Positions 2,283-57,180 of a stretch of DNA of 64,000 bases are shown here, piece after piece. The translations under genes were made by a program, and so were the position numbers. Position 1 is the stretch's first letter. Every line of letters starts with the position of its first letter. The notes below the pieces were generated by a model. That model did not search any database. It had not been told where the DNA came from and worked only from the letters and a program-made list of their open reading frames with translations. This stretch comes from Patescibacteria group bacterium (GTDB taxonomy: Bacteria > Patescibacteriota > Patescibacteriia > 2-01-FULL-39-33): the NCBI GenBank assembly GCA_041650895.1, contig JBAZKF010000001.1, positions 209,685 through 273,684 on the forward strand, written 5' to 3'.

Positions 2283-3431
2283 ATGAAAGTGCTATTTGTC
2301 ATAACTCAATCATCTTGGGGCGGAGCGCAAAAATATGTTTATACTTTTGCTCTAAATTTAGCCAAAAAAAATGATACTGAGGTCATAATAGCCGGTGGCG
2401 AGGAGTCAATCGGAGAATTAACGGCGAAATTGCAGGAAAAAGGCCTAAAATTTGTACCTCTTAAAAAACTAATGAGAAAAGTTAGTCTGCTTAATGATTT
2501 GTTAGCAGTCAAAGAGATAAAAACGCTGATTGAACAAGAACGACCGGACATTATCCACTTAAACAGCAGTAAGGCCGGAGCGGTAGGATCCTTGGCCGCC
2601 AGATTATCCCGTCATCGCGCCAAGGTGGTTTATACGGTGCACGGTTGGGTTTTCAATGAAAGCCTCAATCCCCTGGTCAAACTGTTTTATTTTTTGATAG
2701 AAAAATCATTTGCCGGCTTCAAGGACTGTTTTATCTGCCTATCCGATTTTGATCGGCAAGCCGGCCTTACAGCAAAAATCGCTCCCGCCGAAAAGTTAAT
2801 CACCATCCATAACGGCCTGGATTTGCCGGCTGATTATTTTTTGGATCAAGAGACGGCTCTAAATGAACTATTGGATACTAAACCCGCCGACGAAAATCGG
2901 CCGCTGATTATCGGGACTATTGCTAATTTTTATCCGGCTAAAGGATTAAATTATTTAATTGATACTGTCAGTCTCCTGCCGGCTGACGATTATAAACTGA
3001 TAATCATAGGCGAGGGAGGATTAAGAAACGAATTGGAGAGACAAATCAAGAAATTAAAATTAGAAAATAATTTAGAAAATAATATTATCCTGGCCGGTAA
3101 CAAACAAGAAGCCGCCAGATATCTGAAAGCCTTTGATCTGGCCGTAATGTCATCAGTCAAGGAGGGTCTGCCCTACTTCATACTAGAGGCTATGTCCGCC
3201 GGCTTGCCCGTCATAGCCACCAAAGTCGGGGGCATCCCCGAAACGATTGATGACGGAGTTACCGGTTATCTGGTTGACCCGCGATCACCCGGCCTGCTGG
3301 CGGAAAAAATAAAACTGCTGGCGGATAAAGAATTAAGAAAACGATTCGGCGAAGCGGGATTATCCAAGGTTAAAAAAGAATTCGGCCTAAGCCAAATGAT
3401 AGAAAAAACCTTGAAAGCCTACTCAAAATAA
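2283..3431 (+). CDS. Glycosyltransferase family 4
   Basis: 382 aa. N-terminal WGGAQKYV; C-terminal EGLPYFILEAMSAGLPVIATKVGGIPE. Confidence 0.8.
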   Translation: MKVLFVITQSSWGGAQKYVYTFALNLAKKNDTEVIIAGGEESIGELTAKLQEKGLKFVPLKKLMRKVSLLNDLLAVKEIKTLIEQERPDIIHLNSSKAGAVGSLAARLSRHRAKVVYTVHGWVFNESLNPLVKLFYFLIEKSFAGFKDCFICLSDFDRQAGLTAKIAPAEKLITIHNGLDLPADYFLDQETALNELLDTKPADENRPLIIGTIANFYPAKGLNYLIDTVSLLPADDYKLIIIGEGGLRNELERQIKKLKLENNLENNIILAGNKQEAARYLKAFDLAVMSSVKEGLPYFILEAMSAGLPVIATKVGGIPETIDDGVTGYLVDPRSPGLLAEKIKLLADKELRKRFGEAGLSKVKKEFGLSQMIEKTLKAYSK

Positions 3432-7667: not shown

Positions 7668-8132
7668 TTATTTAACTGGATTAACGGGCGCACCTAAATC
7701 AGGATTAGCCGTAGCTGGACGGATCTGAATAGATTGGGCGATAACACTGCCATCACTGTTGGTTTTGCCGGTTACCACGACATTCTGCCCGACAGCCAAA
7801 TCACTAACAGCACCGGTGGCAAACTTGCCAACTTCCGTTGAGGTGGCGAAAAAGACCATTTTAGAACTGCCGTCGCGACCCTTGACTGTGAGACTTTTTT
7901 CATCCAAAGACAAAACATCGCCATTTACCATCCCCCCGCCGACATTAATTCTCCGGCCGGCCGTGGTGGCATTGCCTTGCTGTTGGCCTTGGCTAAAATT
8001 ACCGCCGCCGAATGAATTAAATCTCTTGGCTGAAGAATACTTGGTGCCGGCATAAAAAGAAGCGGCGCCGACAAGCACGATTACGACCACGGCAACCAAA
8101 ATCATTAAAGGAAGAGGTAACTTTTGTTTCAT
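7668..8132 (-). CDS. Small membrane-anchored secreted protein (154 aa); paralog of 11921-12424
   Basis: N-terminal TM/signal anchor, then a beta-rich domain. Shared pattern with 11921-12424: G.h..hD...ohohKG.D ... SDL.hG..VVV.G ... DGS..A..I.I.P. Confidence 0.55.
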   Translation of the reverse strand: MKQKLPLPLMILVAVVVIVLVGAASFYAGTKYSSAKRFNSFGGGNFSQGQQQGNATTAGRRINVGGGMVNGDVLSLDEKSLTVKGRDGSSKMVFFATSTEVGKFATGAVSDLAVGQNVVVTGKTNSDGSVIAQSIQIRPATANPDLGAPVNPVK

Positions 8133-32986: not shown

Positions 32987-34030
32987 ATGAAAAACACGGT
33001 TGAACTCTTAGCCGTAAAAACCGCCGGACCGGAAATACTGGATGCGACCGGACAACCGATTGACCAACTGAAGTTGGTAGAACTGGCCGGCCGAACCTGC
33101 TACAAATCGCAAGCTAAGATTACCGCCGACTCTGCCCAACGCTTTGTGGGCGCCTTGATCAAAAGCGGCCATGAGGCCATGATAGAATTCTCTTGGCTGA
33201 CTTTCAAATTCCACCAAAAGAACTTACCCAATCTCCAACGATGGCTGATTGATGTCCTCAAGTCAAATGCTCATGTTATTGTGACGGGAGCAGAAGAATC
33301 ATTTTTAATCAGCGGTAATTTCCGATCATTCCGTGACATCTTCCGATCCATTCCTTTGAGTTTGGATTATAATGAGAACTCAATTATTTATTTGTTTCTG
33401 GCTAAGCACTATCCGAAAATTATTGAGGGCTGGATAGCGGCTGAAGCCAAGGAGCTTTACCCCAGCCAACAGGAACATGATTATTGGTATGAGAGTTGTG
33501 CCGAAGACGGCTTCTATAATCTTTCCGGAGTTGCTCTGACTGATGAGGAAAAAATCAAACATTACTGGGCGGCCGCCCGCTTTGTCGGCTCCCGCGCCTT
33601 TACCCATCAGCTTGTCCGCCATCGTCGCTCGTCCTTCGCGCAAGAATCGCAACGTTATTGCGATGAGAGAGGCTTTATTGAAAACGAATATTTCATCGTA
33701 CCGCCATCCATCGAAGAAGCTAAGTTGGCTGAGCTGTATCTGTCGCAATTAAAAGAAAGCAATTCCATGTACCAAAAACTGCTTAATCTAATGGAACAAA
33801 CCGGATTAACGGGCAAAAAACTCAAAGAAGACGCCCGCTTTATGTTGCCCAACGCCGTAGCTTCGGAAATCTGCATGGCTGGAAATTTGGAGCAATGGTT
33901 TCGGGTGTTCAAATTGCGTTTGGACTCCCATGCCCAATGGGAAATCCGTGGCGTGATAGGAGAATTCCAGAAACAATTATTTGCGGCCATACCCGAAGCC
34001 CAAAACCTATATGAAAAATTCTTAGGATAA
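32987..34030 (+). CDS. thyX: Flavin-dependent thymidylate synthase ThyX (long form, 347 aa)
   Basis: The ThyX signature RHRRSSFAQESQRY. An AAGGAG Shine-Dalgarno precedes it, and the stop of tmk is 2 bp upstream. Confidence 0.9.
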   Translation: MKNTVELLAVKTAGPEILDATGQPIDQLKLVELAGRTCYKSQAKITADSAQRFVGALIKSGHEAMIEFSWLTFKFHQKNLPNLQRWLIDVLKSNAHVIVTGAEESFLISGNFRSFRDIFRSIPLSLDYNENSIIYLFLAKHYPKIIEGWIAAEAKELYPSQQEHDYWYESCAEDGFYNLSGVALTDEEKIKHYWAAARFVGSRAFTHQLVRHRRSSFAQESQRYCDERGFIENEYFIVPPSIEEAKLAELYLSQLKESNSMYQKLLNLMEQTGLTGKKLKEDARFMLPNAVASEICMAGNLEQWFRVFKLRLDSHAQWEIRGVIGEFQKQLFAAIPEAQNLYEKFLG

Positions 34031-34236: not shown

Positions 34237-34399
34237 TTATGCCTTTTTAGATAAACTGACAATAATAAATCCTATTCCAGACAAAATAGAAGCAATATCA
34301 TAAGCTAAAACTGTCCCATCATCAATAATATTTAGCAGTCCATTTAATAACAACAGGATGCCGATAATTATTAATGTAATTTTTATTGTCTTGCTCATA
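34237..34399 (-). CDS. Possible small hydrophobic protein (53 aa) missed by the 60-aa ORF cut-off
   Basis: Translated by hand as MSKTIKITLIIIGILLLLNGLLNIIDDGTVLAYDIASILSGIGFIIVSLSKKA. Confidence 0.2.
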
Positions 34400-34440
34400 A
34401 TAATATGTTAAATTATTTTTTAAAGTTAAAGACCGAATTT

Positions 34441-34547
34441 CGCTGAATGTATCGGCATCATCCGAAGTTGCTTAGTAATTTGGGTGTAACGAAGCGGAAC
34501 CGGATATGCCGTGTTAGGCGACCCGCAGGGCTTGCGTATTTTTGAAA
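34441..34547. repeat. Degenerate third copy of the tail region of the structured repeat family (contains the GTTAGGC core-like motif at 34513-34519), downstream of gene 34661-35323
   Basis: cgctgaa-tgtatcgg...ccgtgttaggcgacccgcagggcttgcgt aligns with the tail of copy A (35612-35655). Confidence 0.45.
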
Positions 34548-34660
34548 GATTTATCCTTATTATTAGTTTTTTGGTGGGCTTTTTATTATTGTATTTGATT
34601 TTTTTGTTTTGAAAAATGGAAGAGGGGCTGGGAGTGAATTACATCTTTCAAAACTCCTTA

Positions 34661-35323
34661 TCATTCTGGCCATACTAAACCATCTGCCGGTTCATCAGGA
34701 TAATAATCTTCCTTATCATATGATTCATTCATTTTTATGCTGTCGTATTCACTGAGTAAATCTCTAAAATTTTTCCAAAATTCTTGTAAAACATCAAAAG
34801 CTCTTTCGTTTTCCAATAAGGAAACCCGGCATGAAAAAGTACGCACATCTTTAGGTTCAGTATTTTCATCGCCATAAATTGTACCCTCTCGTGAATGTAC
34901 TTTTTCAAATAAAACTACTTCCTTTTTAAAAAATCCGTTTGTTTTATTGACTGATTTCAACAACACATCTTCTAAGAATTGTACAATTTCATTATTTTCT
35001 ACTTCGGAAACTTTCTCCCGTGGCGCAGAAAATGTTAGAGATGGATTTTTTGGGCGCTTATTTTCCTTAAATTCCGGGAGAACGGCTTTGTATGCAATTG
35101 AACCATCTTGCTTTACGTGTCCAGAACAGGAGTCTATGGTTATTATATCCGTATTTGGAAACTTTGTTTGCATTATTCTGTTAAGTCTCTTGAGTATATT
35201 CTGGATGGGCTTATCCGCACCTTGAATTTCTTCCCATATCCCTCTCTCTTCAGGAGTAATTGGCTGAAGAATTTCCTCTGGCGCTTCTTCATTTTTATAA
35301 GCAAATTTGTATTCCATGTTCAT
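34661..35323 (-). CDS. Hypothetical protein (220 aa); cassette-like gene 1
   Basis: ORF only. Confidence 0.5.
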   Translation of the reverse strand: MNMEYKFAYKNEEAPEEILQPITPEERGIWEEIQGADKPIQNILKRLNRIMQTKFPNTDIITIDSCSGHVKQDGSIAYKAVLPEFKENKRPKNPSLTFSAPREKVSEVENNEIVQFLEDVLLKSVNKTNGFFKKEVVLFEKVHSREGTIYGDENTEPKDVRTFSCRVSLLENERAFDVLQEFWKNFRDLLSEYDSIKMNESYDKEDYYPDEPADGLVWPE

Positions 35324-35471
35324 ATAATTTATATTAGTTTTTCTGCTCCCTAAAAATAGAAAAACCCATTATTACCCTCTCTAATTAATTAAAAAAATAA
35401 AATTTTCTGTCCCTGTTTATCTCACAAAACTCTAAATTTTCACCAAGATAAAAAATTTATTTCGTTGGATG

Positions 35472-35740
35472 AATGAGCCGCGCTTATACAATGTGCCCGA
35501 GCCGCGCGAGCGAGCGAAGGGCATTTTGTATAAGCGTTGTTCGGCGATGTCGCAAAGCGACGAGACAACAACGCTGTAAGCGCGGCTCATTCAGCGACGA
35601 GCGAAGCGATGTCGCTGAAAACATATCGGTTTAGGCGCAGTTGCGTCAACTCATTTTGTAGAACAAGACAGAAGCCGAACAAATCATACGAGCCTAGAAG
35701 CAATTGCGCTTAAACCGTGTTAGGTGACGTAATAATAATT
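35472..35740. repeat. Structured repeat element, copy A: a ~150-bp core with nested perfect inverted repeats plus a ~120-bp tail ending in GTTAGGT (35719-35725) beside the stop codon of gene 35743-35970
   Basis: Core IRs: AATGAGCCGCGC/GCGCGGCTCATT, GCGTTGTT/AACAACGC, GTCGC-aaa-GCGAC, CAGCGAC...GTCGCTG. Near-identical to copy B apart from a 24-bp internal partial duplication. Confidence 0.7.
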
Positions 35741-35742
35741 TG

Positions 35743-35970
35743 TTATTCAATTATACCTGCCGCTTTTAATCCTTCTAAAAGTTGTTGGTAGTCTTCTGGG
35801 GGCCATTCCCCTTCTTTTTCTCCCTTAGCGCATGCTTCGATGGTGTCTATTATTTTTTGAAAAGTTTCAGCATCTACTATGTGTTTACTTTTTAATTTTC
35901 TAAAATGGTCGACTGATTTTCTAATTTTATCATCTAATGGTCTTGTTTCAAGCCCACTTTTGTTTTCCAT
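35743..35970 (-). CDS. Hypothetical protein (75 aa); cassette-like gene 2, flanked on both sides by the structured repeat
   Basis: ORF only. Confidence 0.5.
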   Translation of the reverse strand: MENKSGLETRPLDDKIRKSVDHFRKLKSKHIVDAETFQKIIDTIEACAKGEKEGEWPPEDYQQLLEGLKAAGIIE

Positions 35971-36006
35971 AGGTATAAAATTACTAATTAATTAGTTATA
36001 TCACCT

Positions 36007-36335
36007 AATGAGCCGCGCGAGCGAGCGAAGGGCATTTTGTATAAGCGTTGTTCGGCGATGTCGCAAAGCGACGAGACGACAACGCTGTAAGCGCGGCTCA
36101 TTCAGCGACGAGCGAAGCGATGTCGCTGAACGCTTGCGTGTATCTGAAGTTTTTATCCCGACTTTAACGGAATAATTTTGATTATCAGGTATACGCTTTT
36201 AATACCAACTCCACCCAAACCCTCATCTTGATAAGGGATAAAAATTTGGGCGGAGGAAAATTGGCATTCCTTAAGGATTTAATTAACGCCAATTTTCCGT
36301 AACCAGATACACACTGTTATGTGACGTAGCCAGAA
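36007..36335. repeat. Structured repeat element, copy B (core 36007-36130, about 97% identical to the copy A core; divergent tail ending with GTTATGT at 36316-36322)
   Basis: Aligned by eye. Confidence 0.7.
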
Positions 36336-36368
36336 AGTTCTTCTTCCTTAATGTATTTTTTTGGCAAT

Positions 36369-36650
36369 TTATTTCTTAGAGTCGTGACTGCTAATCTGAC
36401 CCCAGGTAGCGTCTTCTGGTAAGCCACGCTCAGAAGCTTGTCTCTTGCGAGCAGCTTCTGAATCTACATCTCTAATCTGATCCCAGGTAGCGTCTTCTGG
36501 TAAGCCATGCTCAGAAGCTTGTCTCTTGCGAGCAGCTTCTGAATCTACATCTCTAATCTGATCCCAGGTAGCGTCTTCTGGTAAGCCATGCTCAGAAGCT
36601 TGTCTCTTGCGAGCAGCTTCTGAATCTAAACTTGGTCCTTTTTCAATCAT
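36369..36650 (-). CDS. Small tandem-repeat protein: three copies of a 28-aa unit (DSEAARKRQASEHGLPEDATWDQIRDV), encoded by 84-bp DNA tandem repeats; cassette-like gene 3
   Basis: Repeats read directly from the ORF translation and the DNA. Confidence 0.55.
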   Translation of the reverse strand: MIEKGPSLDSEAARKRQASEHGLPEDATWDQIRDVDSEAARKRQASEHGLPEDATWDQIRDVDSEAARKRQASERGLPEDATWGQISSHDSKK

Positions 36651-36846
36651 AGTAATGTTGGTTAAATATTTAACTGTTTATATTATACATAAGTTATGCC
36701 GACCGCCGAAATAAATTACCAAAAAAACTTAAAAAATAATAAAGAAATTTCTGGCTATTTCACATAACAGGTTATAAACCAACTTTTTGATTATTTACTT
36801 AAAAAAAGCTAAAATAAATTAATAAACTTTAATCCATAAGAGGGGT

Positions 36847-37683
36847 ATGGAAACAAATCAACACTATCCTAGTCAGGATCCGCTTGTAAAGTTGCGTCAA
36901 GAAATGAAATTGCGTAATTTTAGCCATAAAACGATAAAAAGTTATCTCTATTATATCACTGACTTCTTAAATAAGTCAAAAAAACAAATCAGGCAGATAA
37001 ACAGCTCAGATATAAGGGAATATTTGGAAAACATGTCTGATTCCGGAATTTCAGCCTCAACCATGAATTGTGCTTATAGCGCCTTAAAAATGTATTTTGA
37101 AAAAATCATGTTTCGGAAATTTTTTGTTGCCATTCCTCGTGCCAAAAAAGAAAAACATTTGCCAGAGGTTTTAAGCAGGACTGAGATCCTTAAAATGTTA
37201 AATTCCCTAAGCAACCCCAAACATCACTGCATCGTCGCCCTACTATACGGTTCCGGCCTAAGGGTGGGAGAAGTAGTCAGAATTAGAATAAAAGATATTG
37301 ATTTAGAGAGAATGAGCCTGCGGATATACCAAGGCAAGGGCAAGAAGGATCGTTATACGGTTTTACCGGAATCATTAAAAAGCATTTTATCTGCGCAATG
37401 CAAAATAAAACTTTCTACTGACTTTTTATTCACTAATGGCCGAGGCAGTCATCTGACTGAAGCCAGCATACAAAAAATAGTAGATCAATCGGCTAAAAAG
37501 GCGGGAATAAACAGGAAAATATCGCCACACACTCTAAGGCATTCGTTCGCTACCCATTTACTAGAAAATGGCACCGATATAAGATATATCCAAGAGTTGC
37601 TCGGTCATTCCAACATAAAAACCACGCAGATTTATACTCATGTTGCCAGATCAATGATAAGCAACATTAAAAGTCCCCTCTGA
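36847..37683 (+). CDS. Tyrosine site-specific recombinase, XerC/XerD-like, divergent from the small-gene array
   Basis: C-terminal HTLRHSFATHLLENGTDIRYIQELLGHSNIKTTQIYTHV (R-H-R-H-Y catalytic set); the box I R (GLRVGE) to the box II H spacing of ~96 aa matches XerD and is shorter than IntI. Confidence 0.85.
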   Translation: METNQHYPSQDPLVKLRQEMKLRNFSHKTIKSYLYYITDFLNKSKKQIRQINSSDIREYLENMSDSGISASTMNCAYSALKMYFEKIMFRKFFVAIPRAKKEKHLPEVLSRTEILKMLNSLSNPKHHCIVALLYGSGLRVGEVVRIRIKDIDLERMSLRIYQGKGKKDRYTVLPESLKSILSAQCKIKLSTDFLFTNGRGSHLTEASIQKIVDQSAKKAGINRKISPHTLRHSFATHLLENGTDIRYIQELLGHSNIKTTQIYTHVARSMISNIKSPL

Positions 37684-37769: not shown

Positions 37770-39296
37770 ATGACTAAATACGTACCGGTCATCGGCATGG
37801 AAATCCACGCCGAACTCAACACCAAAACCAAGATGTTCTGCACCTGCGCCAATGGCTATAAGTTGCAGGATAGACCCAACGAAAACATTTGCCCCATTTG
37901 CCTGGGACATCCGGGTATGTTGCCGGTAGCCAACCATCAAGCCATTGATTGGACGATTTTGGTCGGCCTGGCTTTGAATTGCAAAATCAATAATTTCACC
38001 AAGTTTGACCGCAAAAACTATTTTTATCCGGACCTGCCTAAGGGCTACCAAATCTCCCAATACGATCTGCCCCTGACTTATGATGGCCACTTGCAGGTCG
38101 GCAATAAAGAAGTTTCTATTGTGCGCATCCACTTAGAGGAAGACACGGGCAAACTCTCCCACACCTCTTCCGGCACCTTGGTTGATTTGTCGCGCGCCGG
38201 CACTCCCCTGATTGAACTGGTCACCGGACCGGTCATTGATAGTGCCAAGGAGGCCAAGGAATTCTGCCAACTCTACCAGCAAATCTTGCGTTACTTGGAA
38301 ATCTCCGAGGCGGAGATGGAAAAAGGCCAAATGCGCTGTGAAGCCAACGTATCACTGCAGGAAGACGGCAAATTTGAAATCATCAATAATGAAGTCAAAC
38401 CACTGCTGGATTACCAACTGAATCCCAAAGTGGAACTCAAAAATATCAACTCCTTCCGCTCACTGGAACGGGCGATTGAATTTGAAATCCGCCGCCAGAC
38501 CAAAGCGATTGACGCCGGCGAAAAACTGGTGCAAGAGACCCGCGGTTGGGACGAGGCCAAACAAGAGACTTTCAGCCAGCGAGTCAAGGAAACCGCGGCC
38601 GACTACCGCTATTTCCCCGAACCGGATCTGCCGCCGCTACAAATCAGCGAAGACAAAATTTCCCTGTTGCGCGCCACCTTGCCGGAATTGCCTCAAGCCA
38701 AACTCAAGCGTTTCGTGGCCGAATACCAATTTGATCCGGAAGTTGCCGGCATTATTATCGCCGACAAAACCTTGGCCGCCTACACCGAAAAAGTCATTTC
38801 GGAAATGATTGAATGGCTGGATAGCGTGCCAGAAGTTGAGGGCACAGCTGAAGAAATCAGGGAACGCGAAGGCAAAAAAATCTCCAAGTTAGTGGGCAAT
38901 TGGCTGGTTACTCACTTGTTCAAACATCTTAATGAACACAAAACCGCCATCAAGGACTGCAAAATTACGCCGGAAAACTTCGCCGAATTCCTGTCCCTGA
39001 TTTATATTTCTAAAGTCAATAATCTGGCCGCCCAACAAATATTGGAAGAAATGTTCGCTACAGGCAAAGATCCGTCGGATATTATGGAAGAAAAAAACTT
39101 AGGCCAAATGGAAGACGCCGGGGAAATTGAAACGATCGTAGAAAAAATTATCGCCGGCAATCCCAAGGCGGTAGAAGATTTTAAAGCGGGCAAAGAAGCC
39201 TCTTTCAAATTCTTAGTCGGCCAAGTGATGCGCGAAGCCAAAGGCAAGGCCAACCCGGCGATAATTAACAAATTATTGCTGAATAAGCTGTCCTAA
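37770..39296 (+). CDS. gatB: Aspartyl/glutamyl-tRNA(Asn/Gln) amidotransferase subunit B
   Basis: Canonical GatB N-terminus (VIGMEIHAELNTKTKMFCTCA...) and a C-terminal GatB/YqeY domain. Confidence 0.95.
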   Translation: MTKYVPVIGMEIHAELNTKTKMFCTCANGYKLQDRPNENICPICLGHPGMLPVANHQAIDWTILVGLALNCKINNFTKFDRKNYFYPDLPKGYQISQYDLPLTYDGHLQVGNKEVSIVRIHLEEDTGKLSHTSSGTLVDLSRAGTPLIELVTGPVIDSAKEAKEFCQLYQQILRYLEISEAEMEKGQMRCEANVSLQEDGKFEIINNEVKPLLDYQLNPKVELKNINSFRSLERAIEFEIRRQTKAIDAGEKLVQETRGWDEAKQETFSQRVKETAADYRYFPEPDLPPLQISEDKISLLRATLPELPQAKLKRFVAEYQFDPEVAGIIIADKTLAAYTEKVISEMIEWLDSVPEVEGTAEEIREREGKKISKLVGNWLVTHLFKHLNEHKTAIKDCKITPENFAEFLSLIYISKVNNLAAQQILEEMFATGKDPSDIMEEKNLGQMEDAGEIETIVEKIIAGNPKAVEDFKAGKEASFKFLVGQVMREAKGKANPAIINKLLLNKLS

Positions 39297-49368: not shown

Positions 49369-52300
49369 CTACCTCCCGATGCCGGTCCAGCCGAAAACGT
49401 CCTCAAAATTCTTCATAATAACCTGGAAGACAGATTCCTTTTCTTTGGGAGTAAGAATGGTGTAAACCTTGGAAACGGAGGAATTGCCGTTGGAATCAGC
49501 GCTGATGATCTTGAATTGGTAAATGGCGCCCGGTTCAAAATCGGTAATGACAATAATATGCTTGCGAGAGAAACTGGTATCCAAAGGAGTCTTGTTCCAC
49601 CTGTCTTCCGCTATAACGTCAGCGCCTTTCTGATAGTAAACCTGACCGGTAGCCGGTTCATTGCTTACCCAAGAGACAATGGTCTGGATGCTGGTTTTAC
49701 GGCCGGGAGAAATGGCTGACTCGGTCTGGACTTGCTCAATAACCGGCGGATAATTATCTCGACCAGTCTGGAAGTCCGGAATCTCTTTAGTGATGATATT
49801 ACCCTTGGCATCAGTGCTGGAGAGTTCTATTTTGTAGGTAACGCCGGATTCAAACTCATTAATCTGCATTTCATGAATGGTGGTATAGTTTTTATCGCCC
49901 GAAACTTTAATCTCATCCAATATCAAAATATTATTACGGTAAGGCGTGTACTTTACTTGAGAATTGGTTTCACCGGTAGTAAGCCATCTAAAAATAGCGG
50001 TGCGATCGTCTACGTTCTGTATATTATAACTGGAAATCTCTAATTCCTGAGGCCTGGTCTTGAAAGTAAAATCCTTGGATTTGGATAAAGCGCCGCCCAA
50101 AGCCATGGAACGGACTTGGTAATGATAGGTGGTCTCCGGCTGTAAATCATACAAGGACACGACGTGAAGATTGGTTTGTTCTTCGCTATTGCCGATAACT
50201 TGCAGATAGGCGTCATCTCCCTGTTTGGAATCATATTTGTCATCGGGAGCCAGAGCAACGAGAGAGTTAGATTCCTTATCGGTTGACCAGGAGACGGTGG
50301 CGGAATTGGCGGTAACAATGACTCGCGGTTCACCACCTAACAAGGGCGGAGGGACCATTTCGGAAAGCTGGCGGATAAGGTTGTATTGGGAAGCTATGGC
50401 AGCCTCCAGAGAGTTAATGGAAACACGCCCGGACATGGCTGAGATGAAAGAAGCGGCGCGAGACATGGCAGCGGAAAACATTGAGTCATTATCAGTGACA
50501 GAAGCGCTGGAATCGGTTAGACTGGCATCGGCCGGCAAGCCCAGAGCGTCAGTGGTGACAAAAGTAGCATCTTCAGAAGTGCCAAGGTTGCCGTTTTCGT
50601 CGATAGAATTGACCCGATAATGATAAAGGGTGGAGGGCTGGAGATTGACTAAGGTATTGCTGTGGCTGGTAACCAAATTAGCTCCATAAGAAGCGTTTTT
50701 ATAAGCAGTATCCAAACCGAATTGCACTATGCTGTTAGCGGTTTTACTCGTCACCCAGCTTACCACGGCGCTATCGCCGGAAATACTGGAAACACCAACC
50801 TTAGAAACAATCGGCTTACTGCGATCAATAGATGATCCCCCGCCTCCACCGCCGCAAACTACGCCAGCCGCCCCGGCAGCTTCGCCGGTCGCTTGGGCCT
50901 GGAGCTCTCGCAACAGAATAGCTGATTCCTGTGAGAGGGTTTCCAAAGTAGTAAAAGAATATTCCAAGGTGGAGGAAGCCTCATTGCCTGAATTATCAGT
51001 AGAAATAACTTTGTAATAATAGGTGGTGGAGGAAGATAAACTGGAGAGGACAATATTGTGGTTAGTGTTAAGATTGGTATCTTCGGAACTGAGCGTGTAA
51101 TTGTCCGACTCTGTACCGTAGACCACTTGGGAATCGGACATTTCATTGGTGGTCCAATTAATCAAAGCTTGGGTGTCAATGACGATGGTGGAAGTAACAT
51201 TATCAATAACCGGAGCGACATCATCGTAAGGAGTAGTGAAAGAGTAATAATCGCCGGCATTATTGTCAGTGGCCACACCGGAAGCGACATAGTAATAATA
51301 AATAGTGCCGCGACTAAGTCCGGTCAACGCGATTTCATGACTAGTAACCTCTTCTGTGCCGCCCAAGTGCTCAAAGGAGGCAAAATCGTCGGAAGAAGTG
51401 TAGTAAACATCGGAATCGGCAACAATATCAGTATTCCAAACAATGGTGGCGTTATTATTAGCCACATTGCTGGCGGTAACGTTGCTAATAACCGGCCCGG
51501 AAACAGTAGTGAAGGAATAACCATCGCCCTCATTGGTATTAACACCGGAAACAGATAAAGCATTCTGCGACTCCACAGTAAAATTATAAGTTCGTCCAGG
51601 CAACAAATCAGTCAAAATTACACGATGACGTCCGATGTTACTAACATCCTGAACCATAGTAAGAGAGCCAACGGCAGTATCAAAATCCTTACTAGGATCT
51701 AATGAATAATGGATATAGGAGTTGGCCAGTTCATTGGTATCCCATTCAATAGTGGCGGTCTGGGTGGTGGTCGCAACAACCTCCACATTAGTCAGGATGG
51801 GCGGATTGGGATTGGATCCGCCAACTCCATCAGCAGAATCATTGACAACATTAGTATAAAAAGAAGTATTACCACTAGTGTCCTCCGCATAAACGCGATA
51901 GTAATGGGTAGAATCCAAAACGAGATCCTGGTGGAAATAAAAATTAATGGCATTATCATCAATTAGATCAATTTCTTCATAATCTACGCCGTCTGTCGAA
52001 TGCTCTACATGGTAATACTTGAAAGTAGTAGAAGCCAAAGCCTTCCAGACGATAAATTCTTGATAGGCCGGTACAAGGGTATCGGAAACATCCTTAATTA
52101 TAATATTGTTAAGCGTATCTGGCGTAATAGCACTAGCAGTTGAAGTATTATTGTAGGCATCCTTGAACATAACATAAACCCGTTGGGGGTTAGTGGTCAG
52201 CATAATACTGCTGGTAGTATTGTAATCAATATAACTGCAACCGCTGTAAGAGCTACTTAAAGTTACGCACATCTGCAAACTATCCGAGTCATCAGTGGCG

Positions 52301-55300
52301 CTAAGCGCGAGGGAAGCCGGATAATTAGAATCATTAATTGTGGCGCCATGGGCGTTAACCAAGATCGGATAAGCGCCAGGAGTCGGATTAGCCACATCCA
52401 GAACAAACGAGGCGGTAGTAGTTACTGCGGTATTATTGCCACCCTCCAAATCATCCAAAGTTATCCTGATTTGCGTCTCGGCCGCATATTGACCATTAAG
52501 ACCATCATTTTTGGCATCCCAAAGAACGGTGTAAGTAGAGGTAACGGTAGCACTGACCGTGGTTGTGCCAAAACCGGCTAAAAGTCCAGTTGTACCAGAG
52601 GCATTAGAAAGACGATCGGTCGAGATAGCCGTCCATGATTCTCCCCCATTAATAGATCGTTCAAATGAGGCAATAACGCAATTAGGACAATTAACCCCGG
52701 AAGAAGCCGTATCAGGATCAACAATAGAATAAGTTAGTAATACCTTACCATCACTGGAACGTTGACTGGCGGTAACCGAGTCGCCGGTGAATTCAGGCGG
52801 GGCATTAACTACATAAGTAACAGTTACATCAGAAACACTAGGAGTAGAGGTCCCGCCGGAAGCCAGTATTATCCGATATTGGAAGTATTGATCATCCCCT
52901 CCCGACATTAATGGATGATTAGTATCAGTAATGGTAATGTTATTTTGATTATACTCAAAATAGTTATCACCGGTACAGCCCGCCTCAGTATCGCCGTAAC
53001 CGCACCAAGGAGCGCTCTCTATTGTTGAGGTAGAAGCGGAACTGCGAATTTGTAACTTAACATTATTCTGTGTAGAGGTGCCTGTAGCCGTCCAAGCGAT
53101 TTTGGGAATAATATTGCCTGAGGAACCAGAGTCGTAGATGGAGGAAATAAGAGTGTTAGAAATAGTACCGAGAGAAAACTTAGCAACATTGAGCGACCAG
53201 TTGCCTTGATTGGCCGTAATATTTAAACGATAATATCGATAGCTAGCCATTGAGCTTAAATTATACGTTCTAGTTTCTGAAGCCGACCAACTAGGCACAT
53301 TAGTTTGCGTATCCAAGATTGAAAAAGTAGAAAAATCATCATTTGAACCCTGCAATGTCCATGTTTTTGGAGCAAAATTATTCTCGCTAGATTGAGCTGT
53401 AACTCTATAAGAAACAACAGGAATAACTTGAGACATATCTATCTGAAGCCAGCCATATGTATTTGTTGGCGCCCACCTTGTTGCCACAGAGCCATCAAAA
53501 GCTTTATAAGCGGCGCGAGAAGCGTCATACTCACTATCAGCTGAAACGACGTAAGGTGAATGTGACGTATTTGAGGATAAATCACTTGGCGACACCGTGG
53601 TATAAACTATATGATTCCTATCATAGCTACTCCAATTAATCGTTACATCATTTAAGGTCGCAACAGAACTAACATCGTTAGAAGTGAAGGTGGCGCGGTA
53701 TTGAAAATAGCGTTTACCACTAAGCGAAGCATCAGGAGTGGAACCACTGCTAATAGCCGTCCAAGCCGACCAATTAACATCATCATCACCAGTCGGTGAA
53801 GCAGTAGTACCGGTACGAACTTGCATAGTAACTGCTGTAACCCCACCAGTAGTGGAAGCGTTCCAACTGAAAGTTCCAAGATTAACACTAGCGCCAAAAT
53901 CTTTGACTGCGGAAGTAAATGCTCCCGAATTGGTTCCAAGCTGATCGGCTGGAGTAGTGGTAGAATTCTTAAGGCAACGGACGGGCATACCATTCATTTT
54001 AAAATAACCACCATTAGTATAAACATATCGACCGCTACCAGTACCAATAAGACGATTCCATGCAACATTACTACTGTACTGAGTAGCTGACCAAATATAA
54101 GTAGAGGCATTACGTCCGTAATACACACCATTACTCCACCGACTGCCGGCAGCAGGAATTAAAAAACCGAGCGTTGTACTTGTCCTTAAAGCAGTGCCTT
54201 CAGTAGTACCCAAACCAACATTTACAGTAGTTATATCATAAGGAAAAGTTGAAAGGCAGGTCGCACTATCCTTACCTAATAAACCGCAAACCGATAACTC
54301 TAAAGTATTAACTTCATAATGAGTCGGCACATGCCAGCCAGTTGGACATATACCTTGCGGACCAGGAGCTTCGGTTACTGAAGAGGAGGTGGCATTAAGG
54401 CCACTTTTCATTATAGTAATCCATTGATACAGATAACCTAACTTGTTGGCGTCAGTGGCCGCGGCACAATCCTCGGCAGTGTTGGCAGTATTTCCAGGGC
54501 AAGAATAATAAGCAGTGCTCAAACTGGCCCAAGCGGCAGATGTTGAGGCACTATCACCTTTTACGATAGCGTCTCCATTGGGATAATAAATGGTTTGTAA
54601 ATTCTGACCCATCCAACATTGGCTAGCGATATTAGTAATGGGGTAAGTAATTGATTCCACGCCTCTAACATCGGTCATCGTAGTACCAGAACCGCAAGGC
54701 TGACAGGTCGTACTGCAACTTCCGCTGTTACAATCATTATTCTGAGTACAAGATGCGCCATTTGCTAAACTGCAATACCCGCCAACACAGGAGTTAAGGG
54801 CGCATTCAGTGCTTGTTGAGCAAGATGCTTTAGCGGCTTTTAACGCTATGACTGAGCCGCTACTGCTAACATAAACATTAGTAGAAGAACCGGCTGAAAA
54901 ATCAGCCGTCAAAGTATCTATAGTGGTAGAAGAATAAATTGCCAAAGCTACAGATGAAGAAGCTTCAATGCCATCGTCTTTGCTATAATATTTATTCCAA
55001 TTGGTCTTATCACCAGGATGGGTGGCGATGGTGGAAGTGGACGCTCCCCCGCTCCAATCGGTCTGCACCCAGGCAAAGGTAGCGGCCATAACCCGAGAGA
55101 CAAAAAAGAAGCTCAAACAGAGGATTAACACGGTCAAAGCGATTGAACTGACCATCGTGGCCGTAGTCGCCCGTTTTTTCTTAACATGATGAACCCACAA
55201 GGCTTCTTTAAGATACTCCTCACGAACAATATTTGCCTTTTGCCTATTATCAAAATTAATACCTAGCGGTTTGGCGCTACTAAAAAGTAAATTAAAGCCA

Positions 55301-55701
55301 GAATCAATGTCGTGAATCAACAAAATAAAATAATAAAGTAATTTAAAGCGGAAATAAGGGGAATTAAGTTTACTGAAATCCTGCACATTTTTTTGAATAT
55401 AATGATCGGAAAGTTGGGAAATGCCGGGAATAGAAACGCCATAGCGGTAAGAGAGGTAAATGAATATATTAGCTGATAACAAAACGAGCAGGAATATACT
55501 GCTCCATCTTAAAACTATAAGGGAAGCGACCATTAAACCGATGATAATAGTTAACAAAAAAATGTCCCACAATTTTGATTTGGAACTTAAGAAACTTAAG
55601 AAATTTTTGTTTGAAAATCGGTTCTTTACTCGGTTCTTTGCCATTAAAATAATATTATCCCTCAATAATACTTCTTCGATACTAAAATACTTCTTCAACA
55701 C
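49369..55701 (-). CDS. Giant surface protein (about 2110 aa): N-terminal TM segments, a Fib_succ_major-like domain, a discoidin/F5-8 type C-like domain and multiple FN3 domains
   Basis: Fib_succ_major-like QCWMGQNLQ...GYLYQW...CPTGWHVPTHYEVNTLEL; discoidin-like RWAPTNTYGWLQIDMS...; FN3-like NPPILTNVEVVATTTQTATIEWDTNE and repeats. The N-terminal ~200 aa (55100-55701) are AT-rich and low-complexity; a start at MVSSIALTVL... is possible. Confidence 0.7.
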   Translation of the reverse strand: MLKKYFSIEEVLLRDNIILMAKNRVKNRFSNKNFLSFLSSKSKLWDIFLLTIIIGLMVASLIVLRWSSIFLLVLLSANIFIYLSYRYGVSIPGISQLSDHYIQKNVQDFSKLNSPYFRFKLLYYFILLIHDIDSGFNLLFSSAKPLGINFDNRQKANIVREEYLKEALWVHHVKKKRATTATMVSSIALTVLILCLSFFFVSRVMAATFAWVQTDWSGGASTSTIATHPGDKTNWNKYYSKDDGIEASSSVALAIYSSTTIDTLTADFSAGSSTNVYVSSSGSVIALKAAKASCSTSTECALNSCVGGYCSLANGASCTQNNDCNSGSCSTTCQPCGSGTTMTDVRGVESITYPITNIASQCWMGQNLQTIYYPNGDAIVKGDSASTSAAWASLSTAYYSCPGNTANTAEDCAAATDANKLGYLYQWITIMKSGLNATSSSVTEAPGPQGICPTGWHVPTHYEVNTLELSVCGLLGKDSATCLSTFPYDITTVNVGLGTTEGTALRTSTTLGFLIPAAGSRWSNGVYYGRNASTYIWSATQYSSNVAWNRLIGTGSGRYVYTNGGYFKMNGMPVRCLKNSTTTPADQLGTNSGAFTSAVKDFGASVNLGTFSWNASTTGGVTAVTMQVRTGTTASPTGDDDVNWSAWTAISSGSTPDASLSGKRYFQYRATFTSNDVSSVATLNDVTINWSSYDRNHIVYTTVSPSDLSSNTSHSPYVVSADSEYDASRAAYKAFDGSVATRWAPTNTYGWLQIDMSQVIPVVSYRVTAQSSENNFAPKTWTLQGSNDDFSTFSILDTQTNVPSWSASETRTYNLSSMASYRYYRLNITANQGNWSLNVAKFSLGTISNTLISSIYDSGSSGNIIPKIAWTATGTSTQNNVKLQIRSSASTSTIESAPWCGYGDTEAGCTGDNYFEYNQNNITITDTNHPLMSGGDDQYFQYRIILASGGTSTPSVSDVTVTYVVNAPPEFTGDSVTASQRSSDGKVLLTYSIVDPDTASSGVNCPNCVIASFERSINGGESWTAISTDRLSNASGTTGLLAGFGTTTVSATVTSTYTVLWDAKNDGLNGQYAAETQIRITLDDLEGGNNTAVTTTASFVLDVANPTPGAYPILVNAHGATINDSNYPASLALSATDDSDSLQMCVTLSSSYSGCSYIDYNTTSSIMLTTNPQRVYVMFKDAYNNTSTASAITPDTLNNIIIKDVSDTLVPAYQEFIVWKALASTTFKYYHVEHSTDGVDYEEIDLIDDNAINFYFHQDLVLDSTHYYRVYAEDTSGNTSFYTNVVNDSADGVGGSNPNPPILTNVEVVATTTQTATIEWDTNELANSYIHYSLDPSKDFDTAVGSLTMVQDVSNIGRHRVILTDLLPGRTYNFTVESQNALSVSGVNTNEGDGYSFTTVSGPVISNVTASNVANNNATIVWNTDIVADSDVYYTSSDDFASFEHLGGTEEVTSHEIALTGLSRGTIYYYYVASGVATDNNAGDYYSFTTPYDDVAPVIDNVTSTIVIDTQALINWTTNEMSDSQVVYGTESDNYTLSSEDTNLNTNHNIVLSSLSSSTTYYYKVISTDNSGNEASSTLEYSFTTLETLSQESAILLRELQAQATGEAAGAAGVVCGGGGGGSSIDRSKPIVSKVGVSSISGDSAVVSWVTSKTANSIVQFGLDTAYKNASYGANLVTSHSNTLVNLQPSTLYHYRVNSIDENGNLGTSEDATFVTTDALGLPADASLTDSSASVTDNDSMFSAAMSRAASFISAMSGRVSINSLEAAIASQYNLIRQLSEMVPPPLLGGEPRVIVTANSATVSWSTDKESNSLVALAPDDKYDSKQGDDAYLQVIGNSEEQTNLHVVSLYDLQPETTYHYQVRSMALGGALSKSKDFTFKTRPQELEISSYNIQNVDDRTAIFRWLTTGETNSQVKYTPYRNNILILDEIKVSGDKNYTTIHEMQINEFESGVTYKIELSSTDAKGNIITKEIPDFQTGRDNYPPVIEQVQTESAISPGRKTSIQTIVSWVSNEPATGQVYYQKGADVIAEDRWNKTPLDTSFSRKHIIVITDFEPGAIYQFKIISADSNGNSSVSKVYTILTPKEKESVFQVIMKNFEDVFGWTGIGR

Positions 55702-56129: not shown

Positions 56130-57086
56130 TTAACGAAATTTAGCAAGTTTTAGCGCATCCATTTGCTTGATAATATGATCATCTGATAGCGAACGCAAAT
56201 AGCTTAATGTCATCTTGAAACTCCTATGTCCGAGCAATCCGTAAAGTCCAACCAAATCATTAGTCTGCATGTAATAATTAACCGCGAACGTGTGCCTGAA
56301 CCTGTGTACGTGGCAATTAATACCTGTTACCTCATTAAGATGATTAATCGTATGTTTAAGGCCATGCGCAGTATAACGGCAATCTTTGGTACTGGATACC
56401 CAAAACGCTTCGGTCGAATAATCTCTGCGGCAGTCCAAATATTCCTCAAGGAAAGGTAATAGTTCAAGCTTCAATGGTATATTACGTGTTCGCTTTGATT
56501 TTGATGTCTCGCCGCGCACAGTAACTACCTTCTCTCTCAAATTAACGTCTGACAAATTGAGGCCTAAGAACTCTCCTTTTCTGACTCCTGTTAGATTGAA
56601 AAACATAATCATGGCCAGATTTCTTTTTTTAAGCAGTTTATTCTCCCAGACGATATCTCTGCTGATGGCGACGTATATTTTGTCAAATTCTTCTTTAGTG
56701 AACGCCCGCTTGTCTGTATAACTGACGTCTGGCCAAGCAATGCCCTTAAACGGGTTTTTAGCCAGATACTTATTTTCAACCAACCACATAAAAAATGAGC
56801 TTAATTTACCTCTGATAGTGGCTATGCTTGAATTCTTCAGCGGCCGCACAACCAATTTGTTACCAACCATCCTTTCCCGGGTCTGCGCGAAATCAAAAAA
56901 ATCTACCATAAGGTCAGAATTCAAATCACTTAGTCTGACATCGGGTTTGAATTTTAGAAGCAACTCGAAACTATCGTGATAATTTCGGATCGTCGCTGTT
57001 GCTTTTCCCTCGGAACTTCTGCGTTGTTTAACAAAGGTTTCGAATAGTTCGACCAGACTGGCTTTATTCTTTTCTTTTTGAGTCAT
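56130..57086 (-). CDS. Phage-type tyrosine integrase
   Basis: HVHRFRHTFA...LLGHRSFKMTLSYLR (catalytic H-R-H-Y region) and an N-terminal SAM-like domain. The ATG at 57086 is preferred over the track's TTG at 57110. A TATAAT box and an 8-bp inverted repeat (CTATGATT/AATCATAG) sit at the 5' end. Confidence 0.85.
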   Translation of the reverse strand: MTQKEKNKASLVELFETFVKQRRSSEGKATATIRNYHDSFELLLKFKPDVRLSDLNSDLMVDFFDFAQTRERMVGNKLVVRPLKNSSIATIRGKLSSFFMWLVENKYLAKNPFKGIAWPDVSYTDKRAFTKEEFDKIYVAISRDIVWENKLLKKRNLAMIMFFNLTGVRKGEFLGLNLSDVNLREKVVTVRGETSKSKRTRNIPLKLELLPFLEEYLDCRRDYSTEAFWVSSTKDCRYTAHGLKHTINHLNEVTGINCHVHRFRHTFAVNYYMQTNDLVGLYGLLGHRSFKMTLSYLRSLSDDHIIKQMDALKLAKFR

Positions 57087-57180
57087 ATAAAAACTATGAT
57101 TATACTCCAATCATAGTTCTTATATAAAAAAGGGGTGACTCCTCTTAAATTCGGGCTTAAAGGGAGAATAAATAAACCAA

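Follow-up and report, generated by a model that had tools for sequence, protein, structure and literature searches.

An attC-like element without an open reading frame in a Patescibacteria cassette array: a candidate mini-cassette

Introduction

In a 64-kb stretch of DNA from a Patescibacteria bacterium (hereafter the window), a small gene is flanked by two near-identical copies of a short, densely structured element, here termed element E. A first-pass annotation made from the letters alone offered three kinds of explanation: a MITE, an attC-like site that folds as single-stranded DNA, or a structured RNA. The question is which of these accounts for both the fold of E and its place in the genome. 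It bears on the origin of gene cassettes, as integron integrases are thought to derive from Xer-like recombinases by gain of the I2 helix, which enabled recombination of folded single strands (PMC4792948, PMC7790495). In 2026, approximately 97% of contigs with integron-type recombinases were found to be without recognisable attC sites (PMC13323075). A search of the accessible literature yielded no description of arrays such as the one reported here, and nothing relevant on integrons or attC sites in Patescibacteria (CPR).

Structure and boundaries of element E

The complete copy of E (copy A) occupies 35472-35619 and folds better as the + strand; taken as a cassette on the minus strand, it runs from 35621 to 35474. 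It comprises a closing stem (35472-35483/35580-35591), hairpin 1 (35484-35498/35519-35533), hairpin 2 (35534-35541/35567-35574, with an inner stem at 35549-35553/35557-35561) and hairpin 3 (35590-35598/35611-35619). Copy B (36007-36130, +) corresponds to copy A minus 24 nt, namely the 5' arm of hairpin 1 and one GAGCCGCGC, and has its hairpin 3 at 36101-36109/36122-36130. As first noticed, the copies are nearly the same, with 99% identity across 121 nt (35499-35619 vs 36010-36130); an A to G change at 36078 in copy B replaces a + strand T-A pair by T.G. The inverted repeats initially described are all borne out, including the 12-nt outer pair AATGAGCCGCGC/GCGCGGCTCATT, which extends to 17 perfect nt in copy A, the inner pair GCGTTGTT/AACAACGC around GTCGC-AAA-GCGAC, and the recurring motif GAGCGAAG. 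The 3' hairpin CAGCGAC...GTCGCTG is likewise present, but its length is 9 bp rather than 7 once the TT/AA pairs are counted; for this 26-nt hairpin the chance expectation is 0 matches.

Copy A does carry 24 extra nucleotides (35484-35507) and a repeated 9-nt GAGCCGCGC, but this is not the simple partial duplication that had been proposed, as only GAGCCGCGC is repeated and the other 15 nt (TTATACAATGTGCCC) form a hairpin 5' arm, the 3' partner of which (GGGCATTTTGTATAA) is present in both copies. Because the TTATACAATGTGCCC arm pairs with GGGCATTTTGTATAA, and because homologs at two other loci (L225 and L235) carry the hairpin 1 5' arm that copy B is without, copy B is most likely a deletion derivative that lost 24 nt between two 9-nt direct repeats, not the ancestor of a duplication. 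Both copies lie where they had been placed, whereas the remainder of the feature drawn to 36335 (36131-36335) is a different one, an attC-like palindrome.

The limits of E are sharply defined. Identity between the copies starts at TTCAGCGAC, immediately after G in copy B and two T later in copy A, in which the 5' junction has two additional T (GTTTTCAGC vs GTTCAGC), and it stops exactly at ...GGCTCA|TT; outside E the copies share nothing. The element is thus delimited by G|TT and A|TT, contains no ORF and has a cargo of 12 nt. Its 5' 9 nt are a perfect complement of an R''-like box 12 nt downstream. The ends read AATGAGCC... and ...GTCGCTGAA, with gttggatg/aacatatc flanking copy A and atcacct/cgcttgcg flanking copy B, and neither terminal inverted repeats nor target-site duplications were found at the ends or flanks of either copy. 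No further copies occur in the remaining ~61 kb of the window, both being confined to a gene array. A coding role was considered for two + strand ORFs of 53 and 55 aa (ATG in AATGAGCC) and rejected, since neither L225 nor L235 keeps the ORF and the palindromes dictate the sequence.

A cassette array separated by palindromic sites

The array spans 34440-36783 and is divergent from a tyrosine recombinase gene at 36847-37683. Between its cassettes lie imperfect palindromes with the layout AAC-1 nt-stem...stem-4 nt-GTT. Sites of this form number nine in 22 kb of arrays, all in a single orientation on the strand opposite xer; none occurs in 112 kb outside the arrays, and unrelated DNA (1.84 Mb) has 4.9 per Mb per strand. 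Canonical sites have spacers of 1 nt (R''-L'') and 4 nt (L'-R'), extra bases on the R'-L' arm and mismatches that are G.T on one strand only, and their R and L boxes are conserved in sequence across species (TACATCnnATAAC/CGnATATCTGG).

The cassette nearest to the recombinase gene runs from 36767 to 36131 and encodes a 93-aa protein of three 27-aa repeats (ORF93; 36369-36650, minus strand). It ends in a palindrome at 36121-36328 (minus strand; CGTCACATAAC-a-GTGTGTATCTGG ... TCAGATACACGC-aagc-G|TT; AAC at 36318-36316, GTT at 36131-36129), the R' box of which (TTCAGCGAC) is formed by the first 9 nt of copy B. Copy B is followed by the ORF75 cassette (36008 to 35622; gene at 35743-35970, minus strand), and this cassette is closed by a palindrome at 35612-35731 (minus strand; CGTCACCTAAC-a-CGGTTTAAGCGC ... 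GCGCCTAAACCG-atat-G|TT; AAC at 35721-35719, GTT at 35622-35620), with copy A next. Beyond copy A lies the ORF220 cassette (gene at 34661-35323, minus strand), of which homologs are present in other cassette-like contexts (L236, L238). The distal palindrome (34436-34524, minus strand; TCGCCTAAC-a-CGGCATATCCGG ... CCGGATGATGCCG-atac-A|TTCAGCGAAAT) has ATT in place of GTT, giving a G.T pair on the + strand. The outer arm of this palindrome (AATTTCGCTGAAT, 34436-34448) is similar to the left arm of a site adjoining the recombinase gene (site M, below) and probably marks the far end of the array. A 53-aa membrane ORF just past it (34237-34398, minus strand) may be chromosomal flank and not a cassette.

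The cassettes around E are discrete units with complementary ends. The 5' end of a cassette matches its own R'' box at 10.6 of 15 positions, against 7.05 of 15 for non-self pairs (permutation, 0 of 20,000). The first 8 nt of the ORF75 cassette, TTAGGTGA, directly after copy B, complement its own R'' box TCACCTAA, with 11/15 over 15 nt; the 5' end of the ORF220 cassette, after copy A, fails to complement the distal R'' box (6/15). Co-oriented ORFs upstream of and divergent from xer are found in the window and in four other arrays (L227, L230, L233 and L241). Conserved non-coding 'leaders' directly follow G|TT in other arrays, and L233 additionally has half-sites without a palindromic partner. 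The cargo is of the accessory-gene type, including GNAT, methyltransferase, Fic and HIT proteins.

Recombinase and adjacent site

The recombinase (278 aa, + strand) falls between XerA and IntI. Among solved structures, its best relative is the integron integrase VchIntIA (2a3v), with residues 13-184 aligning to 6-180 and 196-278 to 235-317, such that an IntI-specific insertion of ~43 residues (the I2 helix region) is absent. The protein scores 251.8 against NF040815 (recomb_XerA_Arch), over the cut-off of 220, and is hence a member of the Xer family; against the integron-integrase model TIGR02249 it scores 247.3, under the cut-off of 265, with the match in two stretches. Within its clade it is a conserved gene of a single length, ~279 aa, members ranging from 268 to 304 aa. 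A 'Cand' Xer-related subgroup has been described (PMC8138268). Site M, which is attI-like or dif-like, lies at 36757-36783 on the minus strand (sequence on the + strand: ATTTCACATAAC-AGGT-TATAAACCAAC) and has the layout arm-4 nt-arm. Its right part is conserved among relatives, divergence sets in left of AAC (36766-36768), and contigs from many assemblies end at this site.

These properties raise the alternative that the array is a pile-up of insertions made at a chromosomal dif site by a housekeeping Xer enzyme, as in IMEX, using double-stranded sites and not an integron-like mechanism. The passed XerA and failed integron-integrase cut-offs, the lack of the IntI insertion and the conserved, single-length gene would all fit such an enzyme. 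The layout of M beside the gene (R arm-4 nt-L arm) would fit too, difSL adjoining xerS in much the same way, as would the unpartnered half-sites of L233. We nevertheless regard this as decidedly unlikely, given that the sites are long imperfect palindromes of constant strand asymmetry with one-strand G.T mismatches, pointing to folded single strands, and that the units are single-gene, have complementary ends and keep one orientation throughout. The GC skew also has no turning point at M (~36.8 kb), although this is weak evidence.

Folding and conservation of element E

The dense structure noted at the outset is supported by folding. As RNA, copy A reaches -83.7 kcal/mol (z -8.0 vs shuffled sequence) and copy B a z of -4.5; as DNA, copy A has a z of -7.9. 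The + strand is the better folder in 4/4 E copies, by 5-9 kcal/mol with DNA and 10-13 kcal/mol with RNA parameters, and the G.T pairs of E are confined to this strand, which is the bottom strand of the array. It is antisense to the cassette ORFs and has the direction of the recombinase gene.

Known independent instances of E number no more than three. In L235, which belongs to another Patescibacteria lineage with a recombinase 74% identical to that of the window, only a 32-nt core is shared in sequence with the window element. With copy A as its sole input, a covariance model nonetheless detects L235 (57.8 bits, E 4e-12), and by counts from an alignment fitted to that model, 45/49 modelled pairs are kept, 12 of them changed on both sides. 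Comparison of the sequences shows that E has been conserved in another lineage, with compensatory changes. The L225 element, detected by sequence alone, has a rearranged 3' half, and L225 appears rearranged relative to L235, with internal duplications. Each E has a perfect hairpin of the type TT-box/box'-AA, otherwise rare, and its sequence differs between the window, L225 and L235. Wherever its flanking sequence is known, E is located 36-148 nt upstream of a minus-strand ORF.

Wider searches delimit the distribution of E. In the arrays L227, L230, L233 and L241, no E-like element was detected by blastn, nhmmer or the covariance model (R1), and there is no presence/absence polymorphism between the window and L239 and L240, which derive from other assemblies of the same organism and are identical to it at E. 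A scan of metagenome contigs with the 23-base conserved core returned L235 only, a low count of little weight, as the collection evidently includes neither the genome of the window nor JGI contig L240. The loose pattern GAGCCGCGCN{60,90}GCGCGGCTC gave at least 120 chance palindromes in high-GC genomes among the genome contigs, none with the core, and chance matches only in viral contigs, in which two specific 20-21-mers had 0 matches.

The 99% identity of the copies, their number (two in 64 kb) and the single further contig from the metagenome scan might suggest that they have no role in recombination and are a MITE or an intergenic segment that was passively duplicated. This explanation is largely refuted because of the covariation, L235 having kept the fold via 12 double changes, and is very improbable; the annotation had itself named two copies without covarying homologs as the outcome expected of a mere duplication. 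Nor does it fit that the shared sequence ends exactly at recombination triplets and that every instance of E lies inside an array. The MITE proposal in particular fails for lack of terminal inverted repeats and target-site duplications, with copies and homologs situated in arrays beside a recombinase and none elsewhere in the 64 kb.

The fold could alternatively be that of a structured RNA, either a + strand small RNA, antisense to the cassette genes and in the recombinase gene direction, or a minus-strand 5' leader of the downstream cassette mRNA. Its stability and conservation, the compensatory changes with several G.U-compatible + strand pairs, the sequence-conserved 32-nt core and the location upstream of minus-strand ORFs are in keeping with this, as is a promoter-like TTGACG-18-TATGTT on the minus strand that ends just upstream of copy A. 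However, none of the Rfam 15 covariance models, to which the element had been referred for checking, overlaps E at the gathering threshold or even at E<=10. The stabler strand is antisense to the ORFs, and the + strand has neither a promoter-like site upstream of E nor a terminator-like T-run after it. A second candidate minus-strand promoter, in the core (TTGCGA-17-TATACA), was discarded, as its -35/-10 are not preserved in L225 or L235 and a consensus promoter scan did not report it. The RNA explanation, which leaves the coincidence of the ends of E with recombination triplets and R'-type boxes unexplained, is considered rather unlikely.

Element E as a candidate mini-cassette

Among the options first proposed, E is best read as an attC-like site folding as single-stranded DNA. 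Both window copies lie at a cassette junction, each after a canonical palindrome, and E is always at a crossover point of an array next to an IntI-like/XerA-like recombinase; the G|TT and A|TT bounds, the R''-like complement and the better-folding bottom strand favour the same option. More specifically, and at only just under an even chance, E may be an ORF-less mini-cassette of an integron-like array, in effect an attC-type site nearly devoid of cargo. Its anatomy on the minus (top) strand is G|TTCAGCGAC - 12 nt - GTCGCTGAAT - GAGCCGCGC - (hairpin 2)(hairpin 1) - GCGCGGCTC - A|TT. The first 9 nt would act as the R' remainder and their perfect complement as the element's own R'' box. In place of the L box there would be the GC-rich closing stem of 12 bp, and hairpins 1 and 2 would constitute a branched, variable terminal structure. 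In other respects E departs from the canonical sites of the same system, as it has no 1-versus-4 spacer asymmetry and no CGnATATCTGG-type L box, and the triplets at the base of its R box are AAT...ATT in the window copies and AAT...GTT in L235 in place of AAC and GTT. The 32-nt core, conserved across lineages and unneeded for a merely variable terminal structure, may moreover have another function.

An alternative makes E not a cassette but an accessory to the recombination platform, or one of its structural components. In one variant, E would have begun beside site M with an architectural or protein-binding role, and illegitimate recombination would then have brought it into the array. In the other it would serve as a 'lock', with the R' box of the adjacent palindrome tied up in its hairpin 3. 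The conserved core hints at a binding site, the far-end arm of the array (TTCAGCGAA, 34440-34448) is almost the same as the first 9 nt of E, and in L225 the E-like element abuts M, the M left arm being the 3' arm of hairpin 3; the conserved 'leaders' of other arrays offer a further parallel. Yet E is located away from M in the window and in L235, the L225 arrangement appears to be a rearranged one, and the binding protein is hypothetical. Taken together, the two variants are unlikely.

If E is a mini-cassette, it would fold when the + strand is single-stranded, and the recombinase would join it to site M or to another attC-like site by strand exchange at [A/G]|TT; that the enzyme acts on E is inferred. 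The element would then be insertable and excisable as a unit, with a predicted circular junction GCGCGGCTCA|TTCAGCGAC and predicted E-less junctions GCAAGCG|TTAGGTGAT and CCGATATG|TTCATCC. The two copies around ORF75 could allow its en-bloc excision or duplication. More speculatively, hairpin 3 may compete with the neighbouring palindrome for the R' box and in this way modulate excision of the upstream cassette.

Relationship to known systems

The array has much in common with integrons, particularly with the long attC sites found in sedentary chromosomal ones, such as the Vibrio cholerae repeats, and with ORF-less integron cassettes. In both, an imperfect palindrome ends each single-gene cassette at its 3' side, with conserved AAC...GTT triplets and crossover at G|TT. 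The first bases of a cassette complement its own inverse core, one strand of the site is stabler than the other, and the array diverges from a tyrosine recombinase gene with an adjacent attI-like site; the accessory-gene cargo is also alike. Branched terminal structures are known in chromosomal integron attC sites, and attC sites are defined by extrahelical bases on the L'' arm and an unpaired central spacer of 5-6 nt per arm (PMC5027507). The window system differs in having 1 vs 4 nt spacers with the asymmetry on the R'-L' arm, R and L boxes that are sequence-conserved across species and a recombinase without the I2 region. E itself further differs from attC in its AAT/ATT triplets, fully paired GC-rich closing stem, 12-nt cargo and conserved core.

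Other mobile systems resemble the array less completely. When CTX-phi integrates, its single-stranded attP folds into a hairpin, which XerCD recombine with dif1. This type of IMEX shares with the window system a Xer-family recombinase without the IntI insertion and, as proposed here, the pairing of a folded single strand with a double-stranded site at or near dif, but it integrates a whole phage genome by means of two recombinases (XerC and XerD) and forms no co-oriented cassette arrays with palindromes of their own. CTX-phi is the only other known single-strand/double-strand tyrosine-recombinase reaction (PMC5027507). Plasmid-borne pdif sites are 28-bp double-stranded XerC/XerD sites without a dedicated adjacent recombinase gene. 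As in the window, gene units of pdif modules are bounded by recombination sites, but the window sites are foldable palindromes of 60-200 nt beside a dedicated recombinase gene. On Acinetobacter plasmids, the gene modules are delimited by Xer-type sites that alternate in orientation (PMC7399989). E resembles MITEs and REP/BIME-type palindromic repeats in being short, GC-rich, strongly folding, intergenic and ORF-less; in contrast to them, it is not dispersed in the window but restricted to the recombinase-adjacent array, it lacks terminal inverted repeats and target-site duplications, and its ends are recombination triplets.

It can be put forward tentatively, with the balance still somewhat against it, that this clade of Patescibacteria possesses a natural platform for integron-like gene capture, comprising an I2-less integrase relative that never acquired or has lost the insertion, a site grammar of its own (AAC-1-L...L-4-GTT), a folded bottom strand, and E as an attC-only mini-cassette. 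Foldable, strand-asymmetric cassette sites beside an I2-less IntI/XerA-like enzyme would challenge the need for I2 in cassette-type recombination. If true, the platform would show the Xer-to-integron transition in a living form, and would supply an actual instance of the 'novel attC' that has been proposed for the many integron-type recombinases without recognisable attC. This reading would also extend cassette-based gene capture to ultra-small, host-dependent, uncultured Patescibacteria, and would explain the assembly breaks upstream of the recombinase gene. E, as an attC-like module with near-zero cargo and a conserved core, would provide a handle on the origin of cassettes and their sites, and is perhaps a free-standing attC able to seed or shuffle cassettes. 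In the window, the cassette closest to site M is itself flanked by a 49-nt imperfect inverted repeat (36314-36362/36722-36770).

Architecture of element E

Element E, a GC-rich folding repeat, is present as copy A (35472-35619, 148 nt) and copy B (36007-36130, 124 nt), with 121 nt in common at 99% identity; a search of the window yielded no further copies. The two bracket a 75-aa ORF (35743-35970, minus strand), in keeping with the first-pass annotation of near-identical structured copies around one small gene. Folded as RNA on the + strand, copy A reaches -83.7 kcal/mol (z -8.0 versus shuffled sequence) and copy B a z of -4.5, while copy A as DNA gives z -7.9; fold stability is well above that of shuffled sequence. 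Copy A has four parts: a closing stem of 12-13 bp, hairpin 1 (arms TTATACAATGTGCCC / GGGCATTTTGTATAA), hairpin 2 (GCGTTGTT...AACAACGC enclosing GTCGC-AAA-GCGAC) and, immediately adjoining, hairpin 3 (TTCAGCGAC-12 nt-GTCGCTGAA). Copy B is without 24 nt, namely the hairpin 1 5' arm and one of two GAGCCGCGC direct repeats. The length difference had previously been ascribed to an internal duplication in copy A; the 24 nt stand, but as relatives keep the hairpin 1 5' arm, copy B has most likely lost them by deletion. The heptamer GCGAAGC, known to form an unusually stable DNA mini-hairpin, occurs in the hairpin 3 loop on the + strand only (35600-35606 and 36111-36117) and is not kept in the related contig L235.

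The recombinase and its cassette array

E sits in a low-GC island from thyX (32987-34030) to gatB (37770-39296), which contains four small minus-strand ORFs and one + strand tyrosine recombinase (36847-37683, 278 aa). This protein scores 251.8 against the XerA model (cut-off 220) and, in two stretches, 247.3 against the integron-integrase model, just under the cut-off of 265. Among solved structures it scores best with the integron integrase VchIntIA (176.6 bits; XerA 157.8). The alignment skips from VchIntIA residue 180 to 235, so the protein is without the IntI-specific insertion. Patescibacteria, Magasanikbacteria-like MAGs among them, commonly have homologs at 55-77% identity, of which nearly all measure 268-304 aa. 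Elsewhere in the window, a second and only distantly similar tyrosine recombinase (56130-57110, minus strand, 326 aa; 24% identical over 188 aa) lies in lower-GC DNA beside the gene for a 2110-aa surface protein (49369-55701).

At site M, the attI-like or dif-like site beside the recombinase gene (36757-36783), relatives have TATAAACCAACT...TTGATTA and a triplet AAC in common upstream of this gene; left of the AAC, their sequences diverge. Seven contigs from other assemblies (L226, L228, L229, L234, L242, L243 and L001) stop at M or beside it, between 0 and 200 nt before the start of the recombinase gene, which agrees with population-level heterogeneity of the first cassette. The ORF of this cassette (36369-36650, minus strand) contains three tandem 81-nt repeats (36391-36633) encoding 27-aa protein repeats; the same organism in another assembly (L239) has two such repeats, giving a 66-aa ORF.

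The stretch upstream of M holds unrelated accessory genes in the relatives, each transcribed divergently from the recombinase gene: HIT, inositol phosphatase, methyltransferase and NUDIX genes (L230), caspase-helicase, Fic and HD protein genes (L233), GNAT acetyltransferases (L225 and L241) and an RrnaAD methyltransferase (L227). Between genes lie imperfect palindromes, read on the strand opposite the recombinase gene as TACATCnnATAAC-1 nt-CGnATATCTGG ... CCAGATATnCG-4 nt-GTTAGCTGAAAT. Scanning for the grammar AAC-1-stem (at least 9/10)...stem-4-GTT recovered nine sites in 22 kb of arrays, in a single orientation throughout, none in 112 kb outside the arrays at the same loci, and 18 in 1.84 Mb of unrelated DNA, both strands counted. 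When the 15 nt that open a cassette after G|TT are compared with the reverse complement of its own 3' box, 10.6/15 positions agree, against 7.05/15 for non-self pairs (permutation, 0 of 20,000), and the match runs on to 24/28 in L241, 25/29 in L227 and 49 nt at 76% in the window. Such grammar and complementary ends are expected of units that circularize and recombine at G|TT, like integron cassettes. Stem mismatches are G.T on the bottom strand and A.C on the top strand, and the bottom (+) strand folds better in six of eight canonical sites, a bias that agrees with the one reported for attC sites (PMC5027507). Other features of these arrays include a conserved non-coding leader of ~45 nt that different species have behind the crossover G|TT (TTAGCTGAAATATTCCTTTTCTTTT..GGGCTATCGCCC; L233 ~7905 and ~4526, L230 ~3823) and, in L233, half-sites (L'-4-GTT, no 5' arm) near 3260, 2440 and 1575.

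E within the array

In top-strand (minus) orientation, the sequence around copy B is ...CAGATACAC-GCAAGC-G|TTCAGCGAC-ATCGCTTCGCTC-GTCGCTGAAT-GAGCCGCGC...GCGCGGCTC-A|TTAGGTGAT...; E begins right behind the preceding palindrome's crossover G and ends at A|TT. The identity shared by the copies starts at TTCAGCGAC, which adjoins the crossover G in copy B and lies two T further along in copy A; it stops exactly at the A|TT point. As these limits fall at crossover points, E behaves as a separate unit carrying 12 nt of cargo, inserted before two different gene cassettes. The first 9 nt of E have a perfect complement 12 nt further on, which acts as its own R''-like box; the closing stem stands in for the L box, with hairpins 1 and 2 as a branched terminal structure. 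The 8 nt that follow A|TT, TTAGGTGA, complement the R'' box of the palindrome of the ORF75 cassette. The 5' junctions differ, GTTTTCAGC in copy A (35620-35622) versus GTTCAGC in copy B (36129-36131), and precise G|TT exchange does not account for the two extra T of copy A.

Homologs and covariation

L225, whose recombinase is 74% identical to that of the window, and its strain variant L235 have an E-like element that separates a GNAT cassette from the next recombination site. Sequence conservation is limited to a 32-nt core, GGCATTTTGTnTAnGCGnTGTTCnGCGATGTC (blastn E 1e-5). The L235 element nevertheless adopts the four-part fold of copy A (z -5.7) and aligns end to end with a covariance model derived from copy A only (57.8 bits, E 4e-12); 45/49 pairs persist, 12 with both sides changed and five via G.T, and the four broken pairs are mostly at the closing-stem base. 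Since the alignment was fitted to the model and E is known from only three independent lineages, this covariation is suggestive, not statistically strong. Hairpin 3 is perfect in all three sequence versions (TTCAGCGAC, TTATGACGCTAT and TTATGCCGAAA), its 3' arm in L225 is the left arm of M itself, and the + strand folds better in all four E copies. L225 has CGACCGGAGGGAGAG twice (7836-7850 and 7897-7911) and, compared with L235, the segment GGCTTCGGAAATAA on the opposite side of hairpin 3 and the opposite strand, suggesting that L225 is rearranged with a breakpoint at hairpin 3.

Nature of E and related systems

Of the options first proposed for the two copies, a MITE is contradicted by the anatomy and covariation of E, on which a plain duplication likewise fails. 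An attC-like site folding as single-stranded DNA is the most economical reading, given the crossover-point ends, the R''-like box and the better-folding + strand. E may accordingly be described, at slightly below an even chance, as an attC-like recombination module, in effect an ORF-less mini-cassette; we infer the part of the recombinase in every mechanistic step. E differs from its system's canonical sites in its AAT/ATT triplets and in having neither the 1/4 spacer asymmetry nor an ATAT-type L box. Because of these differences and the conserved core, a second function is possible, as RNA, in protein binding or in structurally locking the neighbouring R' box, although searches gave no positive support for an RNA role.

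The array works like an integron, and a further parallel is Xer recombination of the CTX-phi type, which acts on a folded single strand. It is not classed as an integron because it does not show features that define one: the IntI insertion, extrahelical bases on the L'' arm and 5-6-nt central spacers. Searches of the available literature turned up no account of such arrays from Patescibacteria. The 'Cand' Xer-related recombinases are only assumed to be chromosome-dimer resolvases (PMC8138268); a 2026 study explicitly raised 'novel attC sites' as an explanation for integron-type recombinases without detectable attC (PMC13323075).

Two other repeat types were observed among the contigs. Palindromic 40-nt repeats, TTGTTGTAAATTTATCGCGGTCGCGATTTTTTTACAACAA, occur in L237 and in L236 (7950-7990, 8670-8720 and 9215-9260), where they flank a homolog of the 220-aa cassette gene and its neighbour with no recombinase in view. 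The 2-kb contig L238 has two copies (~25-140 and ~1508-1612) of a ~100-nt GC-rich multi-hairpin repeat with arms GCGTCACAGTCTCC / GGGACTGTGACGG / CCGTCGCAGTCCC / GGAGACTCTGACGC, each just upstream of an ORF, one of these ORFs being homologous to the window's 220-aa cassette gene at 59% identity; this repeat may be the counterpart of E, or an attC, in another lineage.
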